This document shows, one piece after another, positions 7,331 through 25,293 of a stretch of DNA of 64,000 nucleotides. Location of the stretch: assembly GCF_013315695.1 (NCBI RefSeq), contig NZ_CP054353.1. One strand, given 5' to 3'. The translations under genes were made by a program, and so were the position numbers. This DNA comes from Escherichia coli (GTDB lineage Bacteria > Pseudomonadota > Gammaproteobacteria > Enterobacterales > Enterobacteriaceae). Positions within the stretch are counted from its first letter, which is position 1; every line of letters starts with the position of its first letter. The notes beneath the pieces were generated by a model that saw only the letters and a list, made by a program, of their open reading frames with translations, did not search any database and was not told the origin of the DNA.

Positions 7331-8563
7331 TTAGTACAGCAGACGGGCGCGAATGGTACCCGGAATAGCTTTCATTGCCTGCAGCGCTTTTTCGGCAACG
7401 TCTTCGTCGGCTTCAATATCAATAACTACATAACCCATCTGGGCGGAAGTTTGCAGATATTGCGCGGCGATGTTGACGCCCTGCTCGGCAAAAATTTTGT
7501 TGAGCGCAGTTAGCACGCCCGGACGGTTTTCGTGGATGTGCATCAGACGACGCCCACCGTGCAGTGGCAGCGAGACTTCCGGGAAGTTCACCGCAGAGAG
7601 CGTTGAGCCATTGTCAGAATACTTGATCAATTTACCCGCAACTTCCAGGCCGATATTCTCCTGCGCTTCCTGAGTCGAACCGCCAATGTGTGGCGTCAGA
7701 AGGACATTGTCAAATTCACACAGCGGAGAGGTAAATGGATCGCTGTTGGTCGCCGGTTCCGTCGGGAATACGTCGATTGCCGCCCCCGCCAGATGTTTGC
7801 TCGCCAGCGCGTCACACAGTGCCGGAATATCCACCACAGTACCGCGCGAAGCATTAATCAGCAGCGAGCCGGGCTTCATTAGTGAAATCTCTTTCGCACC
7901 CATCATATTTTTGGTGGACGGATTCTCTGGCACATGTAGACTCACCACATCGCTCATATTCAGCAGGTCAGAAAGATGCTGTACCTGAGTGGCGTTGCCC
8001 AGCGGCAGTTTGTTTTCAATATCATAAAAGTAAACATACATTCCCAGCGATTCAGCCAGAATGCCCAATTGAGTACCAATATGACCATAGCCGATGATAC
8101 CCAGCTTTTTGCCGCGCGCTTCAAAAGAACCCGCCGCCAGTTTGTTCCACACGCCACGGTGCGCTTTAGCATTGGCTTCCGGCACGCCGCGCAATAGCAG
8201 CAGCAGTTCGCCAATCACCAGCTCCGCAACAGAGCGCGTATTTGAGAACGGTGCGTTAAATACCGGGATACCGCGTTTTGCCGCCGCATCCAGATCAACC
8301 TGGTTTGTTCCGATACAGAAACAGCCAATAGCGACCAGTTTTTCTGCGGCGTTGATCACGTCTTCAGTCAGATGGGTACGGGATCGCAGGCCGATGAAGT
8401 GGGCATCGCGGATGGATTCTTTTAATTGTTCATCATCCAGCGCGCCTTTGTGAAATTCGATGTTGGTGTAACCCGCTGCACGAAGGCTTTCAAGCGCCTT
8501 TTGGTGCACGCCTTCTACCAGCAGAAACTTAATCTTGTCTTTCTCCAGCGATACCTTTGCCAT
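7331..8563 (-). CDS. serA: D-3-phosphoglycerate dehydrogenase (410 aa)
   Basis: ORF product MAKVSLEKDKIKFLLVEGVHQKALESLRAAGYTNIEFHKG... full length. Confidence 0.97.
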   Translation of the reverse strand: MAKVSLEKDKIKFLLVEGVHQKALESLRAAGYTNIEFHKGALDDEQLKESIRDAHFIGLRSRTHLTEDVINAAEKLVAIGCFCIGTNQVDLDAAAKRGIPVFNAPFSNTRSVAELVIGELLLLLRGVPEANAKAHRGVWNKLAAGSFEARGKKLGIIGYGHIGTQLGILAESLGMYVYFYDIENKLPLGNATQVQHLSDLLNMSDVVSLHVPENPSTKNMMGAKEISLMKPGSLLINASRGTVVDIPALCDALASKHLAGAAIDVFPTEPATNSDPFTSPLCEFDNVLLTPHIGGSTQEAQENIGLEVAGKLIKYSDNGSTLSAVNFPEVSLPLHGGRRLMHIHENRPGVLTALNKIFAEQGVNIAAQYLQTSAQMGYVVIDIEADEDVAEKALQAMKAIPGTIRARLLY

Positions 8564-8818: not shown

Positions 8819-9478
8819 TCATTTCACAATGGTTTTGACACCGTCAGGTGTGCCAATCAGCGCAACGTCCGCGCCACGGTTAGCAAACAAGCCAACAGTC
8901 ACCACGCCAGGAATCGCATTTATGGCGTTTTCCATCGCTATCGGGTCAAGGATTTCCATGCCGTGGACGTCGAGGATCACGTTGCCGTTATCGGTCACCA
9001 CGCCCTGACGGTATTCCGGACGACCGCCCAGTTTCACCAGCTGGCGCGCCACTGCACTACGTGCCATCGGGATAACTTCTACTGGCAGCGGGAATTTGCC
9101 CAGAATATCAACCTGCTTAGAAGCGTCTGCAATACAGATAAATTTTTCCGCAACCGAAGCAATGATTTTTTCACGGGTCAGCGCCGCGCCGCCGCCTTTG
9201 ATCATTTGCATGTGGCCGTTGATTTCATCTGCGCCATCAACGTAGATGCCAAGGCTGTCGACTTCGTTGAGATCAAAAACGTGAATGCCGAGGCTTTTCA
9301 GTTTTTCAGTGGAAGCATCTGAACTGGAAACGGCCCCTTCAATCTGGCCTTTCATTGTACCGAGCGCGTCAATAAAGTGTGCGGCGGTGGAACCTGTACC
9401 TACACCAACAATGGTGCCGGGCTGAACATACTGAAGTGCCGCCCATCCTACTGCTTTTTTCAATTCATCCTGCGTCAT
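8819..9478 (-). CDS. rpiA: Ribose-5-phosphate isomerase A (219 aa)
   Basis: Internal start [35 protein letters not shown]... Confidence 0.95.
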
Positions 9479-9515
9479 GATCGTTTCGCCTGTGGTATGA
9501 AATTTCACACGCATT

Positions 9516-9641
9516 ATACTCTAAATAATTCGAGTTGCAGGAAGGCGATAAGAGAGTGAATCCCCAGGAGCTTACAGAAGTAAGTGACTGGGGTGAGCGA
9601 ACGCAGACGCAGCACATGCAACTTGAAGTATGACGAGTATA
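9516..9641. repeat. ERIC/IRU intergenic repeat, copy 1 (126 bp)
   Basis: Contains gtgaatccccaggagcttacagaagtaagtgactggggtgagcg; near-identical in inverted orientation to 25169-25293. Confidence 0.75.
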
Positions 9642-9655
9642 TACAAAAAAGCGAG

Positions 9656-10552
9656 TCAGACCCCGCTGACAAGTCGCGTGGTTAACTCATCCATAAAATA
9701 TCGTGCTATGGCGGGCATCCCCTTTTGCCCGGCAAATAAAGCATACAACGGTCTGGGTATGCCGCTCCACGGTGCAAACAGGCGCACCAGTTCACCGTTC
9801 GCAAGCCCCTGTTTACAGGCAAATTGAGGCAATAACGCCACGCCATTCCCACCAAGCACTGCCTGCAACATGACACGAATGTTATTTGTCTGCAAACGCG
9901 CCTCAGGCTGCAACGTAATCTCCTGTTCGCCATTAATTAACTGCCACTGGCTCCCGCCATTGTTTGTCAGGCGAAGGATCCCGTCGACGCGGTTAAGATC
10001 GTCAATGGCCTTCACCTGCGGATGGCGGGCCAGCCACTGCGAACTGGCAACTAAAATATCGGCCTGAGTATGTAATTTTTTATAATGCAGCGTCGAGTCC
10101 GCAAGCGCGCCGGAAGCCGTAACCAGCGCAATATCAATGCCTTCAGCGACCATATCCACCGGGCGATTAATTGCCAGCATTTGCACCTTCGCCAGGGGCC
10201 AGCGGGCGATAAATTCACTGACGAACTCACCAAACCATGTTTCAGCCATAAATACCGGCGCGCTGACGCGCAGCATTCCCTGTGGGCTTTCCTGGGCGGC
10301 CATCACCACCGCTCTGGCCCGTTCCCCCTGAGCCACCAGCGCCCGACACTCGACAGCAAACTGTTCCCCTGCCGCCGTCAGGGCCAGACGCCGCGTAGTT
10401 CGCTGAATAAGCCTCACGCCGAGGCGCTCTTCCAGCGCTGCCATTCGACGGCTTAATACCGATTTCGACACACCCGCACGCAGCGCCGCCTGGCTGTAGC
10501 TGCCTTCATCGGCAATCAGGGCAAAGTAGTAGTAATCATTCCAGTCGATCAT
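9656..10552 (-). CDS. LysR-family transcriptional regulator (298 aa), divergent from the downstream reductase operon
   Basis: ORF product with N-terminal HTH (YSQAALRAGVSKSVLSRRMAALEERLGVRLIQRTTR) and LysR substrate-binding region; K-12 has only a LysR-type pseudogene remnant here as I recall. Confidence 0.85.
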   Translation of the reverse strand: MIDWNDYYYFALIADEGSYSQAALRAGVSKSVLSRRMAALEERLGVRLIQRTTRRLALTAAGEQFAVECRALVAQGERARAVVMAAQESPQGMLRVSAPVFMAETWFGEFVSEFIARWPLAKVQMLAINRPVDMVAEGIDIALVTASGALADSTLHYKKLHTQADILVASSQWLARHPQVKAIDDLNRVDGILRLTNNGGSQWQLINGEQEITLQPEARLQTNNIRVMLQAVLGGNGVALLPQFACKQGLANGELVRLFAPWSGIPRPLYALFAGQKGMPAIARYFMDELTTRLVSGV

Positions 10553-10652
10553 GATTGTTCTATTTTCACAACAATGAAGTTCAATTATGACTATTTAATC
10601 ACCATGTCAACAACAGTTAAACTTCTCTCATCGCAGAAATGAGAGCAAACCC

Positions 10653-11282
10653 ATGAAAATTCTCCATATCGACAGCAGTCCAATGCTTAAGCATTCAAGT
10701 TCGCGGAAATTAAGCCAGGCGCTGGTAGAAGCGCTTTGCCAACGTTTCGCGCAAGCCACAATTATTCATCGCGACGTTGGCCTGACGCCCCCACCCCATT
10801 TGCGTGAAGAAACCTTTCTGGCGCTTTGCGGTAAAGCGGAATGCGAGAACGCACAAATTCAGCAGGAGGTGAATGATATCCACGCTGCTATTGATGAACT
10901 GGCATCGTGCGATGTGCTCATTATTGGCGCGCCGATGATTAATCACAGCGTTTCATCTGGCCTCAAAACCTGGATAGATCAGGTCTGTCAGGCTGGTTTA
11001 ACGTTTCGTTTTACTTCCGCTGGTGCCGTTGGGTTACTGACGGATAAACCGACGTTTATTGTCTCGACGCGCGGCGGTATCTATTGCGATGAAGCACATC
11101 TGGCGCTGGATCATCAGGAAAGTTATCTGCAAGCCACACTGAAATTAATGGGCATTACCAATACACATATTTTGCGCGCGGAAGGCGTCGACAAAACCCA
11201 ACCGGGACGCGAACTCGCCGAGCAAAATGCATTAGCGCAAACCCCTGATCTTATTACACAAGTATTTAATCATTATCTTTAA
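10653..11282 (+). CDS. FMN-dependent NADH-azoreductase (AzoR / ACP phosphodiesterase family) homologue (209 aa)
   Basis: MKILHIDSSP...RDVGL...VLIIGAPMINHSVSSGLKTWIDQVCQAGLTFRFT...IVSTRGG pattern parallels AzoR. Confidence 0.8.
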   Translation: MKILHIDSSPMLKHSSSRKLSQALVEALCQRFAQATIIHRDVGLTPPPHLREETFLALCGKAECENAQIQQEVNDIHAAIDELASCDVLIIGAPMINHSVSSGLKTWIDQVCQAGLTFRFTSAGAVGLLTDKPTFIVSTRGGIYCDEAHLALDHQESYLQATLKLMGITNTHILRAEGVDKTQPGRELAEQNALAQTPDLITQVFNHYL

Positions 11283-11298
11283 TATAAAAGGAGTTATT

Positions 11299-11559
11299 AT
11301 GTCTATTAAGCAAAATTTATTTGCCGCATTATTTCTTTGCACTCTCACAGGACACGCATTTGCCGCAACCGAGATACACAAACCGGACAATAATCTTGAA
11401 CAGTTATCAAAAGTGAGCATGTCCACACACAATAGCAATCCAGCGGGCGTTGAAAGCCAAATCAAAGAGAAAGCGGAAGAGTTACAAGCCAGCAATTACT
11501 ACATCAGTTCTTTCTCCGGTAAAAATTATATCCACGCCACTGTAATTTTCTATAAATAG
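11299..11559 (+). CDS. Small secreted DUF1471 (YhcN/BhsA-like) family protein (86 aa)
   Basis: Signal peptide MSIKQNLFAALFLCTLTGHAFA and C-terminal ...NYIHATVIFYK typical of BhsA/YjfY-type stress proteins; RBS aaggag upstream. Confidence 0.7.
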   Translation: MSIKQNLFAALFLCTLTGHAFAATEIHKPDNNLEQLSKVSMSTHNSNPAGVESQIKEKAEELQASNYYISSFSGKNYIHATVIFYK

Positions 11560-11620
11560 CCCCTCTGTTTAACGGAAGCATGGAATTATTCCATGCTCCT
11601 CTGCCAAAATGAAATAAAAA

Positions 11621-12946
11621 ATGAAAAAAGCTAATCTTACAGGTACGTTGGTTTGCTTTGTCGCATGCCTTATTTTTTTGTCGTCCGGTGATATTTTTCG
11701 TGAAAAGCCAATCGCGCTAATATGGTTCCTTCGACAAAACATACTCTTTTTTACGGGAACTCTTGCGTGGTGTCTGATGACGCTGACGATGTGTTTATCG
11801 TTGCGTTCATCATGGCTTAACAAAGTGCTGGGCGGTCTGGATAAAGCATGGCGATTACATAAGTGGGCAGGAATATGCGCCATAGCGTTTGCTTTCGCCC
11901 ACTGGCTGGATGAAAAATTACCCCAGTTATTCGTCGCCTTTGGCTGGCTTACTCACCCTGGTAAAATCGTTGATATTAACCTGACGCCAGTACAAGAAAA
12001 TTGGCTTCATGCGGGACTGTTAGCGGGTGAATGCGCAATGTTTATTATTATAGCGATGGTTTGCGTATCTCTTAGCAAAAGAGTTCCCTATCATTTATTT
12101 CATCTTGTTCACCGTTTGTTCCCCGTCTTTTATCTGGCAATTGCCTTTCATGTGTTTACTGCTTTGTTTAAATCATACTGGTGGGAAACTCCTGCTGCGT
12201 ATTTATTAATTTTAATTACTATTCCGGGCGTCTTTGCGGCTTTCATTTCGCTGCTGAAATTAAACGGTAGTAAAAACAAGCATCAGGCTACCATTAAAAA
12301 CATTGTTAACCATCCAGGACAAATTACCGAAGTCACCCTGGAGCTGGAACATGCCATCGACTATTCTCCGGGGCAGTTTGCATTCTTAACGTTCGCACAC
12401 AGTAAAGAATCTCACCCTTTTACTATCGCTTCATACACCAAAGAGAAGAACACGTTGCGCTTTGCCATCAAAAATTTAGGGGATTATACCTCTACCCTTG
12501 CATCCTCGATAAAAATCGGCCAGTCCGCCTTCGTTGAAGGGCCATGGGGAAAGTTTGATTTTACTCTCCCTTGCTCCCACCAGGTCTGGATAGCAGGAGG
12601 CATCGGCATTACCCCCTTTATCGCCCAGCTTGAGTATCGTAAACATCATGGCGCGTCCTCTGTTCCTGTGGATCTCTGGTATTGCGTCAGCCGAAGCGAG
12701 GATGCCTGGTATGTTGATAAACTGACCTCACTTTGTGCCCAGGCCAGGGTCACACTGCATCTGCTTGATGCGCATAAAGGTGAGCGCCTACAGGCGCACT
12801 ATCTTACTGATAAAATAGCAAATAAAGGTGACACCCATTTCTGGTTTTGCGGCCCACAGAGTTTTGCCAAAGCGCTCAGCAAAGGGTTATATGAAAATGG
12901 GATTGCCAGCCAAAACTTCCATTACGACCGTTTTTGTATGCGTTAA
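11621..12946 (+). CDS. Ferric-reductase-domain membrane flavocytochrome (NOX/FRE-like; TM domain plus FAD- and NAD-binding domains), 441 aa
   Basis: His-containing TM helices ([26 protein letters not shown]), HPFTIAS FAD motif and GGIGITP NAD(P) motif. Confidence 0.8.
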
Positions 12947-13016
12947 ATGCTCTGTACCCAACGCAAAATTGTGTCATAGTGCAGGAAAAAGCATTTACCA
13001 GGAGCAGACAACAGCA

Positions 13017-13910
13017 ATGAAACGCCCGGACTACAGAACATTACAGGCACTGGATGCGGTGATACGTGAACGAGGATTTGAACGCGCGGCACAAAAGCTG
13101 TGCATTACACAATCAGCCGTCTCACAGCGCATTAAGCAACTGGAAAATATGTTCGGGCAGCCGCTGTTGGTGCGTACCGTACCGCCGCGCCCGACAGAAC
13201 AAGGGCAAAAACTGCTGGCACTGCTACGCCAGGTGGAGTTGCTGGAAGAAGAGTGGCTGGGCGATGAACAAACCGGTTCGACTCCGCTGCTGCTTTCACT
13301 GGCGGTCAACGCCGACAGTCTGGCGACGTGGTTGCTTCCGGCGCTGGCTCCTGTGTTAGCTGATTCGCCTATCCGCCTCAACTTGCAGGTAGAAGATGAA
13401 ACCCGCACTCAGGAACGTCTGCGCCGCGGCGAAGTGGTCGGCGCGGTGAGTATTCAACATCAGGCGCTGCCGAGTTGCCTTGTCGATAAGCTCGGTGCGC
13501 TTGACTATCTGTTCGTCAGCTCAAAACCGTTTGCCGAAAAATATTTCCCTAACGGCGTAACGCGTTCGGCATTATTGAAAGCACCTGTGGTCGCCTTTGA
13601 CCATCTTGACGATATGCACCAGGCCTTTTTGCAGCAAAACTTCGATCTGCCCCCAGGCAGCGTACCGTGCCATATCGTTAATTCTTCAGAAGCGTTCGTA
13701 CAACTTGCTCGCCAGGGCACCACCTGCTGTATGATCCCGCACCTACAAATCGAGAAAGAACTGGCCAGCGGTGAACTGATTGACTTAACGCCGGGGCTAT
13801 TTCAACGCCGGATGCTCTACTGGCACCGCTTTGCTCCTGAAAGCCGCATGATGCGTAAAGTCACTGATGCGTTGCTCGATTATGGTCACAAAGTCCTTCG
13901 TCAGGATTAA
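13017..13910 (+). CDS. argP: LysR-family regulator ArgP (IciA), 297 aa
   Basis: Internal start [43 protein letters not shown]... Confidence 0.95.
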
Positions 13911-25168: not shown

Positions 25169-25293
25169 TATACTCGTCATACTTCAAGTTGCATGTACTG
25201 CGTCTGCGTTCGCTCACCCCAGTCACTTACTTATGTAAGCTCATGGGATTCACTCTCTTGTCGCCTTCCTGCAACTCGAATTATTTAGAGTAT
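25169..25293. repeat. ERIC/IRU intergenic repeat, copy 2 (inverted relative to copy 1)
   Basis: cgctcaccccagtcacttacttatgtaagctcatgggattcac core; reverse complement aligns with 9516-9641 with a handful of mismatches. Confidence 0.75.

Follow-up and report, generated by a model that had tools for sequence, protein, structure and literature searches.

The NADPH oxidase (NOX) homologue of Streptococcus pneumoniae, SpNOX, oxidizes NAD(P)H in vitro with O2 as the acceptor (PMC5676040) and also reduces external cytochrome c and Fe(III) (PMC11564096; PMC5676040). Its reduction of cytochrome c is largely direct, a dedicated O2 site could not be confirmed, and its ferric reductase activity, measurable and of very low efficiency, was judged nonphysiological by its authors (PMC11564096), who proposed a protein acceptor, the identity of which they left open (PMC11564096; PMC5676040). 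A predicted flavocytochrome of the same type is encoded in the four-gene cassette that is the subject of this study, which lies between rpiA and argP in a stretch of 64,000 nucleotides from Escherichia coli (RefSeq assembly GCF_013315695.1, contig NZ_CP054353.1; the whole stretch is hereafter called the window). In this cassette, a LysR-type regulator gene is divergent from a plus-strand operon encoding an AzoR-like reductase, a small secreted DUF1471 protein, and the flavocytochrome.

Other described systems share parts of this arrangement. MsrQ (YedZ) is likewise a dihaem b protein with a ferric-reductase domain that carries electrons across the inner membrane, and it serves a periplasmic protein partner in oxidant-induced envelope defense (PMC5676040, PMC11564096). 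However, MsrQ has no fused FAD/NAD domain and is fed by quinol or Fre, and its partner MsrP is a molybdoenzyme, whereas no MsrP-like gene is linked to the cassette. The rclABC operon and its regulator gene rclR, a defense against reactive chlorine and HOSCN in which RclB and RclC appear to act together with a flavoprotein reductase (PMC12096828), present the same kinds of parts, i.e., a divergent regulator, a cytoplasmic flavoprotein reductase, a periplasmic DUF1471 protein, and an inner-membrane protein. This resemblance is architectural only: just the DUF1471 component is homologous (27.7 bits with the RclB model versus a cutoff of 100), RclA is a pyridine-nucleotide-disulfide-type reductase, RclC is a DUF417 protein, RclR is not of the LysR type, and NCBIfam and Pfam scans of the four cassette proteins gave no match to RclA, RclC (DUF417), or RclR. 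On the regulatory side, CrgA of Neisseria meningitidis is an autorepressor that, in response to electrophile challenge, switches on mdaB, a divergent gene for a quinone reductase (PMC2724274). The cassette shares with it a LysR protein of the same predicted subgroup (1.3e-27), T-N11-A sites in a short intergenic region, and a flavodoxin-fold target, whereas CrgA-mdaB involves a single target gene, a quinone reductase that is not of the AzoR type, and no membrane or periplasmic component.

The literature searched gave no description of the four-gene combination and, for the rpiA-argP locus, nothing beyond a gene list. The component families, the RefSeq annotation of the genes, and the existence of an E. 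coli NOX homologue, noticed in 2017, were already known; this analysis brought out a conserved operator, a deletion scar that is variable on its left and shared on its right side, exchange with Salmonella, and a contrast with betaproteobacterial cytochrome c operons. We tentatively propose that the cassette is a LysR-induced operon spending NAD(P)H against quinone, electrophile, or oxidant stress, including oxidants from hosts or competitors. The locus joins the question of the in vivo role of bacterial NOX homologues to that of the mechanism of enterobacterial DUF1471 stress proteins, and the existence of natural nulls (K-12 and most strains) next to natural carriers makes simple gain- and loss-of-function tests available in E. 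coli.

Predicted proteins and control region

The initial annotation had described an intact redox module at this site, and its four open reading frames (ORFs) were reproduced with exactly the same coordinates (Table 1), none of them containing an internal stop. Domain searches bore out the families that it had named for the regulator (HTH_1, 1.2e-19; LysR_substrate, 8.6e-33), the reductase (Flavodoxin_2, PF02525, 1.4e-40), and the secreted protein (YdgH_BhsA-like/DUF1471 domain, PF07338, 2.5e-9 over aa 34 to 86). For the flavocytochrome, Ferric_reduct (7.5e-14) and FAD_binding_8 (1.3e-8) were recovered as expected, whereas NAD_binding_6 was not (E = 3.8), its region being covered by NAD_binding_1 (4.1e-7). 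Both motifs that had been read from its sequence are in place, HPFTIAS at aa 265 to 271 (nucleotides 12413 to 12433) and GGIGITP at aa 326 to 332 (nucleotides 12596 to 12616). An identical stretch with the same RefSeq annotation is carried by a UK blood isolate (NZ_OZ547117.1), in which the genes are named LysR family regulator, FMN-dependent NADH-azoreductase, YdgH/BhsA/McbA family protein, and ferredoxin reductase family protein.

Hydropathy predicts six transmembrane (TM) helices in the flavocytochrome (aa ~8 to 212), followed by a cytoplasmic dehydrogenase domain (aa ~220 to 441). The predicted haem-ligand pairs are H80/H94 in TM3 (H-x13-H) and H164/H177 in TM5 (H-x12-H); these four histidines, which lie in hydrophobic helices of the predicted model, are invariant in alignments of 13 and of 52 homologues, as are HPF, GGIGxTP, CGP (aa 410 to 412), and the C-terminal aromatic residue F438. 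By sequence, the closest solved relative is SpNOX (8qq7/8qt6, 1.2e-26 with phmmer), and a Foldseek search with the AlphaFold2 model (pLDDT 90.1, pTM 0.88) returned three full-length SpNOX structures first (TM-scores of 0.75 to 0.84), then NOX5, DUOX1, and NOX2. Hajjar et al. retained as bacterial NOX candidates proteins with two His-X12/14-His motifs that lie in predicted TM helices and are separated by 20 residues or more, together with FAD and NAD(P)H motifs, and all three of their filters select the flavocytochrome, the latter motifs being HPFTI (aa 265 to 269) and GIGITP (aa 327 to 332) (PMC5676040). Model and motifs agree in pointing to a protein of the SpNOX type within the NOX/FRE group, for which electron-transfer chemistry is likely.

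The comparison with SpNOX can be made residue by residue. The SpNOX haem ligands, H69/H83 and H129/H142, are spaced by 14 and 13 residues (PMC11564096), exactly as in the flavocytochrome, and both proteins have six TM helices, HPF[TS], GxGxxP, an aromatic residue three from the C-terminal end, and no regulatory domains. The two proteins nevertheless share only ~22% identity, and the periplasmic TM3-TM4 loop is ~25 residues longer in the E. coli protein (residues 95 to 135, versus 84 to 99 in SpNOX), which is moreover encoded in a LysR-controlled operon with AzoR-like and DUF1471 genes, a context not described for SpNOX. Hajjar et al. had cloned in 2017 an E. coli candidate, "EcNOX" (UniProt L2VL28, strain KTE10), which is absent from the constructs named for stronger haem signals and was taken no further (PMC5676040). 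EcNOX may be this 441-aa protein or a 38%-identical paralogue, the two candidate records being WP_001571863.1 and WP_001305829.1; in the later literature the accession L2VL28 is not mentioned, no paper was found that applies the name EcNOX to the 441-aa protein, and a cluster look-up gave chimeric clusters that lack the accession. The paralogue (435 aa; L092, 5001 to 6308) occurs in other E. coli, with IS66-family transposase genes directly upstream, an rve-domain transposase/integrase-type gene ~4 kb downstream, and no LysR, AzoR-like, or DUF1471 neighbour.

More distant homologues were found at 80 loci, mostly betaproteobacterial and 35 to 43% identical, among the matches listed in a scan of a genome collection. 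None of these 80 has an AzoR-like or DUF1471 neighbour, whereas 27 have genes for a DUF1924 protein and a DHC dihaem cytochrome c upstream on the same strand (Pfam scores of 3.9e-35 and 7.8e-40). The order DUF1924-DHC-NOX-like is seen, for example, at L014, L027, L060, L076, and L084, with the genes within ~1.3 kb upstream; at L084 an ORF for a small secreted PepSY-like protein stands between the DHC and flavocytochrome genes, and in many other loci ~500 bp separate the DHC and NOX-like genes. These units, to our knowledge uncharacterized, also include a divergent PepSY gene and a response regulator. They resemble the enterobacterial cassette in that a homologous flavocytochrome (35 to 38% identity) follows same-strand genes for small secreted proteins, and they differ from it in their c-type cytochrome and PepSY partners and their two-component system, whereas the cassette has no cytochrome c and combines the flavocytochrome with AzoR-like and DUF1471 partners under LysR-type control. 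The cytochrome c and PepSY neighbours argue that periplasmic partners are common for the NOX-like family and suggest cytochrome c as an acceptor within it, which fits the suggestion made for SpNOX that the acceptor at its exposed outer haem is a protein and not O2.

The reductase also matches FMN_red (8.7e-13) and, among solved AzoR enzymes, Pseudomonas putida AzoR1 (4c0w, 5.3e-29) and E. coli AzoR (1v4b, 2.1e-22). Its scores lie under the NCBIfam azoreductase cutoffs (72.9 versus 188 bits for NF010075, 48.8 versus 143 for NF002370, and 46.4 versus 432 for NF010074), placing it in a separate subfamily of the AzoR family and not among AzoR equivalogs. It is best described as a predicted cytoplasmic paralogue of the FMN-dependent NAD(P)H quinone/azo reductases.

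The DUF1471 gene has a strong AAGGAG ribosome-binding site, and a Sec signal peptide can be read from its product (aa 1 to 22, with AFA before the predicted cleavage site), the mature part of which has no cysteine. As with the reductase, all equivalog scores fall under their cutoffs (BhsA, 53.1 versus 90 bits; YhcN, 38.6 versus 125; McbA, 27.8 versus 110), as already given for RclB, and the protein is an additional paralogue of the YdgH/BhsA/McbA family. Between this gene and the flavocytochrome gene, the RNA of positions 11555 to 11625 folds at -15.8 kcal/mol (z = -3.4). G-U pairs and compensatory changes preserve the stem in the remaining E. coli alleles as well as in an E. coli-type Salmonella copy, and a divergent Salmonella cassette has a hairpin of unrelated sequence in the same gap. 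This stem-loop may be an intra-operon attenuator or an mRNA stabilizer.

The best solved relatives of the LysR protein are AphB (3szp/3t1b, 1.8e-34) and CrgA (3hhg), which assigns it by similarity to a CrgA/AphB-like subgroup, and it scores under every NCBIfam equivalog cutoff (the best being PRK14997, 165.7 versus 380 bits). Cys69 and Cys246 are invariant in eight homologues with identities down to 37% and may reflect thiol-based sensing. A thiol switch of the AphB type was considered and set aside: Cys69 aligns with a cysteine of AphB, itself a redox-responsive regulator, whereas Cys246 aligns with none.

The layout that the initial annotation had called typical of LysR-type regulator targets, a LysR gene divergent from a three-gene operon across a short intergenic region, holds, and its dyad is conserved even where cassette proteins are only 50 to 70% identical. 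This dyad occurs only once in the window and is kept in five cassettes, over which the control region has a mean column identity of 83%, whereas the proteins are 50 to 95% identical; the control region is thus better conserved than the proteins that it serves. Dyad-like sequences were also seen by eye at LysR/AzoR-like gene pairs of Hafnia and Rahnella. LysR control of the operon is likely. A search of the whole window for Fur boxes, allowing up to 3 mismatches, found none.

Homologues of the LysR protein (38 to 42% identity) are divergent from a lone AzoR-like gene in Hafnia and Rahnella and from a lone NOX-like gene in Azonexus (L008) and at L090. That one LysR subfamily pairs with either gene alone argues for one shared signal, and the enterobacterial cassette seems to have arisen by fusion of two LysR-controlled units, the DUF1471 gene being a later addition.

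Deletion and exchange of the cassette

E. coli K-12 MG1655 has none of the four genes, as the initial annotation had stated, and aligns to the window up to position 9848, then over 11195 to 11256, and then from 12961 onward. The cassette is thus reduced to 211 bp of the 3' end of the LysR gene (9638 to 9848, its last ~64 codons) and, at 11195 to 11256, to 62 bp from the 3' end of the reductase gene. The LysR scar is yqfE, the annotated product of which is a 76-aa "LysR substrate-binding domain-containing protein"; in a published list of K-12 deletions, yqfE stands directly before argP. Between the scars lie another 62 bp (L002, 1989 to 2050) with no counterpart in the intact locus and no detectable source. 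The right-hand breakpoint (11256|12961) is common to K-12 and six other deleted strains of different backgrounds, whereas the left-hand one (9848|11195) remains intact only in K-12 and UPEC132, smaller secondary deletions having eroded the LysR or reductase remnants around it in the other strains. A shared right-hand breakpoint and an eroded left-hand one point to one old deletion event; the LysR remnant is 94 to 95% identical to the window, versus 97 to 99.7% for the flanks.

The K-12 state clearly derives from an intact cluster by deletion. This part of the earlier reading, that K-12 has lost the locus, stands, whereas calling the locus ancestral needs qualification, given the cassette at other Salmonella sites and the low synonymous divergence (dS) of an E. 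coli-type Salmonella copy, both described below. Of 5,426 complete E. coli genomes, 247 (4.6%) contain the inner DNA (9900 to 12900), always on the chromosome, as three classes of alleles (~100, 98.2, and 95.3% identity); AF3, SW070910, and 88COLEC are examples of carriers. About three quarters of the carriers look fully intact in an evenly spaced sample (60 of the 247), the others showing the insertion sequence IS1 in the flavocytochrome gene, frameshifts, or partial loss. In MS6198 (L101, 3869 to 4566), IS1 follows ~codon 216 of the flavocytochrome gene, an insertion found in 7 of 13 sampled records (at least 99.8% identity with the whole query covered), and in 1604D011 (L102, 3222 to 4545) frameshifts break this gene into three ORFs.

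Outside the rpiA-argP site, the cassette is found at unrelated positions in Salmonella and in another enterobacterium. A divergent four-gene version (L004/L005), with proteins 71, 72, 37, and 52% identical to those of the window, lies elsewhere in the Salmonella enterica chromosome, once beside an integrase-like gene; another four-gene copy (L089) lies beside Rhs toxin genes, and a three-gene version (L088) lacks DUF1471. Gene order and orientation are retained in L004/L005 and L089, three unrelated chromosomal contexts being occupied overall. Moreover, an E. coli-type cassette (L006, 4048 to 7338) occupies the same rpiA-argP site in Salmonella enterica subsp. enterica (identified by exact protein matches), its proteins being 95, 92, 94, and 89% identical to those of the window. 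In this copy, the cassette genes have a dS of 0.18 to 0.57 relative to the window, versus ~1.36 for the flanking rpiA and argP, and nucleotide identity jumps from ~0.84 to ~0.93 at the cassette edges, which argues for inter-genus exchange or allelic replacement. Together with the other sites, this dS contrast indicates that the cassette is an accessory unit spread by horizontal exchange. Its behaviour is that of mobile DNA, as the G+C content of the three operon genes, lower than that of the window, also suggests, and some E. coli carriers show its renewed decay. Insertion as a site-specific island was rejected, since no flanking direct or att-like repeats, tRNA, or integrase were found at the E. 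coli site.

Selection was assessed from the ratio of nonsynonymous to synonymous divergence (dN/dS) among the three E. coli allele classes and L006. In every comparison, dN/dS was 0 to 0.23 for all four cassette genes and 0 to 0.012 for rpiA and argP; the cassette genes are thus clearly under purifying selection, under weaker constraint than their flanks. The locus provides a clear case in which one old deletion scar extends across most of a species while the intact cassette persists, is exchanged with Salmonella, and is inactivated again by IS1.

Proposed function and rival explanations

We propose the following model for the operon, the inducibility, inducer, cofactor loading, direction and acceptor of electrons, and any role of the DUF1471 protein all being inferred. 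The LysR protein would bind the ATTGTT-N10-AACAAT dyad at its own start codon, repressing its own gene, and, upon a redox or electrophile signal, would activate the plus-strand promoter. The AzoR-like enzyme would then act in the cytoplasm, using FMN for the two-electron reduction of soluble electrophiles of the quinone, azo, or nitro type, while the flavocytochrome would take hydride from NAD(P)H to FAD and pass single electrons via the inner and outer b-haems to an acceptor at the periplasmic face. The exported DUF1471 protein would belong to this envelope arm, either serving the flavocytochrome as partner or adaptor or protecting the envelope in the manner of BhsA and RclB. The quinone and electrophile theme comes from the AzoR family, whose enzymes are quinone reductases (PMC4051601), and from the activation of the divergent mdaB by CrgA, with the two invariant cysteines of the LysR subfamily as a further argument; the functional linkage of the four genes comes from their same order and orientation in other contexts and from the short gaps within the operon. 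A bolder form of the model, a long shot by analogy with the cytochromes c and PepSY proteins of the betaproteobacterial homologues, would make the DUF1471 protein the dedicated periplasmic partner of the flavocytochrome. If so, the operon would represent NAD(P)H-powered delivery of reducing equivalents to a specific envelope target, the first biochemical role for DUF1471 proteins, and the first physiological acceptor pathway for bacterial NOX homologues, with K-12 as a natural null.

Several points weigh against a stress-protective operon of this kind. The subcutoff azoreductase scores mean that the substrate range of the reductase could depart from that of AzoR, and the DUF1471 protein lacks both cofactor motifs and cysteines, which excludes it as a redox acceptor in its own right, its gene moreover being missing from L088. 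An exposed haem reducing quinones by one electron would yield semiquinones, a product of no obvious protective value. A generic promoter and terminator scan missed the plus-strand promoter, with counts no better than those of shuffled sequences, and the literature searched contained no expression, phenotype, or enzymology of the locus. Finally, the cassette is dispensable, being deleted in ~95% of E. coli, and is damaged in part of its carriers.

Chelates of Fe(III) or Cu(II) in the periplasm might instead be the substrates of the flavocytochrome, in the manner of the yeast FRE proteins, with the flavin reductase supplying reduced flavin or reducing cytoplasmic ferric chelates and the DUF1471 protein modulating envelope permeability to the metal, as BhsA is reported to do for copper. 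The Ferric_reduct domain, the name "iron reductase" in older sources, the measurable ferric activity of SpNOX (PMC11564096), and the link of BhsA, the best NCBIfam match of the DUF1471 protein, to copper permeability (PMC12096828) all speak for metal reduction. We nevertheless think it unlikely, since the window has no Fur box, a dedicated LysR regulator is in control, no cassette context has linked transporter or siderophore genes, and the ferric efficiency of SpNOX is too low to be physiological according to its authors (PMC11564096). Oxygen as the acceptor would turn the flavocytochrome into a true bacterial NADPH oxidase, deliberately producing superoxide or H2O2 outside the cytoplasm to compete or to signal while the AzoR-like and DUF1471 proteins protect the producer. 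The complete NOX motif set and fold would allow this, as would the use of O2 by SpNOX in vitro (PMC5676040) and the longer TM3-TM4 loop, which could form a cap over the outer haem like that of eukaryotic NOX enzymes. However, SpNOX reduces cytochrome c mostly directly and its dedicated O2 site was not confirmed (PMC11564096), the periplasmic cytochromes c of the related operons indicate protein acceptors, and no immunity, superoxide dismutase, or catalase gene is linked to the cassette, so that an oxidase function appears improbable.

That the four genes are adjacent leftovers without joint function, drifting to loss, would agree with their absence from ~95% of complete E. coli genomes, with the IS1 insertions and frameshifts in the flavocytochrome gene of some carriers, and with the low G+C content of the three operon genes (0.40 to 0.48, versus 0.52 for the window). 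It is very improbable in view of the low dN/dS of all four genes, the recurrence of these genes, all four in unchanged order, in three unrelated chromosomal contexts, a control region more conserved than the proteins, and four intact ORFs in the window. An anti-phage defense function was also considered and dropped, PADLOC giving no match for any of the four proteins. The NAD(P)H-dependent response to quinone, electrophile, or oxidant stress is the reading that we retain, as a quite possible one.

Coordinates and neighbouring elements

Within the plus-strand operon, the intergenic gaps are 16 bp (reductase/DUF1471) and 61 bp (DUF1471/flavocytochrome). The features of the locus are collected in Table 1.

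Table 1. Positions in the window of the cassette genes, the predicted control elements, and the flanking genes (LTTR, LysR-type transcriptional regulator)
Feature	Position	Strand	Size	Remark
serA	7331-8563			Left flank
rpiA	8819-9478			Left flank
LysR-type regulator gene	9656-10552	-	298 aa	ORF list
Divergent control region	10553-10652		Exactly 100 bp	
Perfect dyad ATTGTT-N10-AACAAT	10554-10575			Predicted LTTR T-N11-A type site, abuts LysR start codon
Conserved block CTATTTAATCACCAT	10591-10605			Inside divergent control region
-10-like TAAACT	10618-10623	+		Candidate operon promoter, assigned by eye
AzoR-like reductase gene	10653-11282	+	209 aa	ORF list
DUF1471 gene	11299-11559	+	86 aa	ORF list
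Stem-loop	11573-11603	+		In DUF1471/flavocytochrome gap, no T-run after it
Flavocytochrome gene	11621-12946	+	441 aa	ORF list
argP	13017-13910			Right flank, then scpA

Between rpiA and the LysR gene lies an ERIC/IRU-type repeat of ~124 bp (9514 to 9637), in which positions 9578 to 9599 match the ERIC2 PCR-primer sequence exactly; on the minus strand, the core recurs without mismatch at 25211 to 25232. The sole Rfam match of the repeat is V_AS5, at 37.9 bits versus a gathering score of 96, and apart from this subthreshold match the search for structured RNA in the region gave just one match at chance level. The element is missing in K-12 and in the intact allele of SW070910 and present in some deleted alleles (HYM1, YL03).

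On the other side of the cassette, the 70 bp from the flavocytochrome stop to the argP start (12947 to 13016) contain no terminator-like structure. Since the right-hand breakpoint of K-12 is at 12961, the DNA upstream of argP differs between carriers and noncarriers, which possibly differ in read-through from the cassette into argP.

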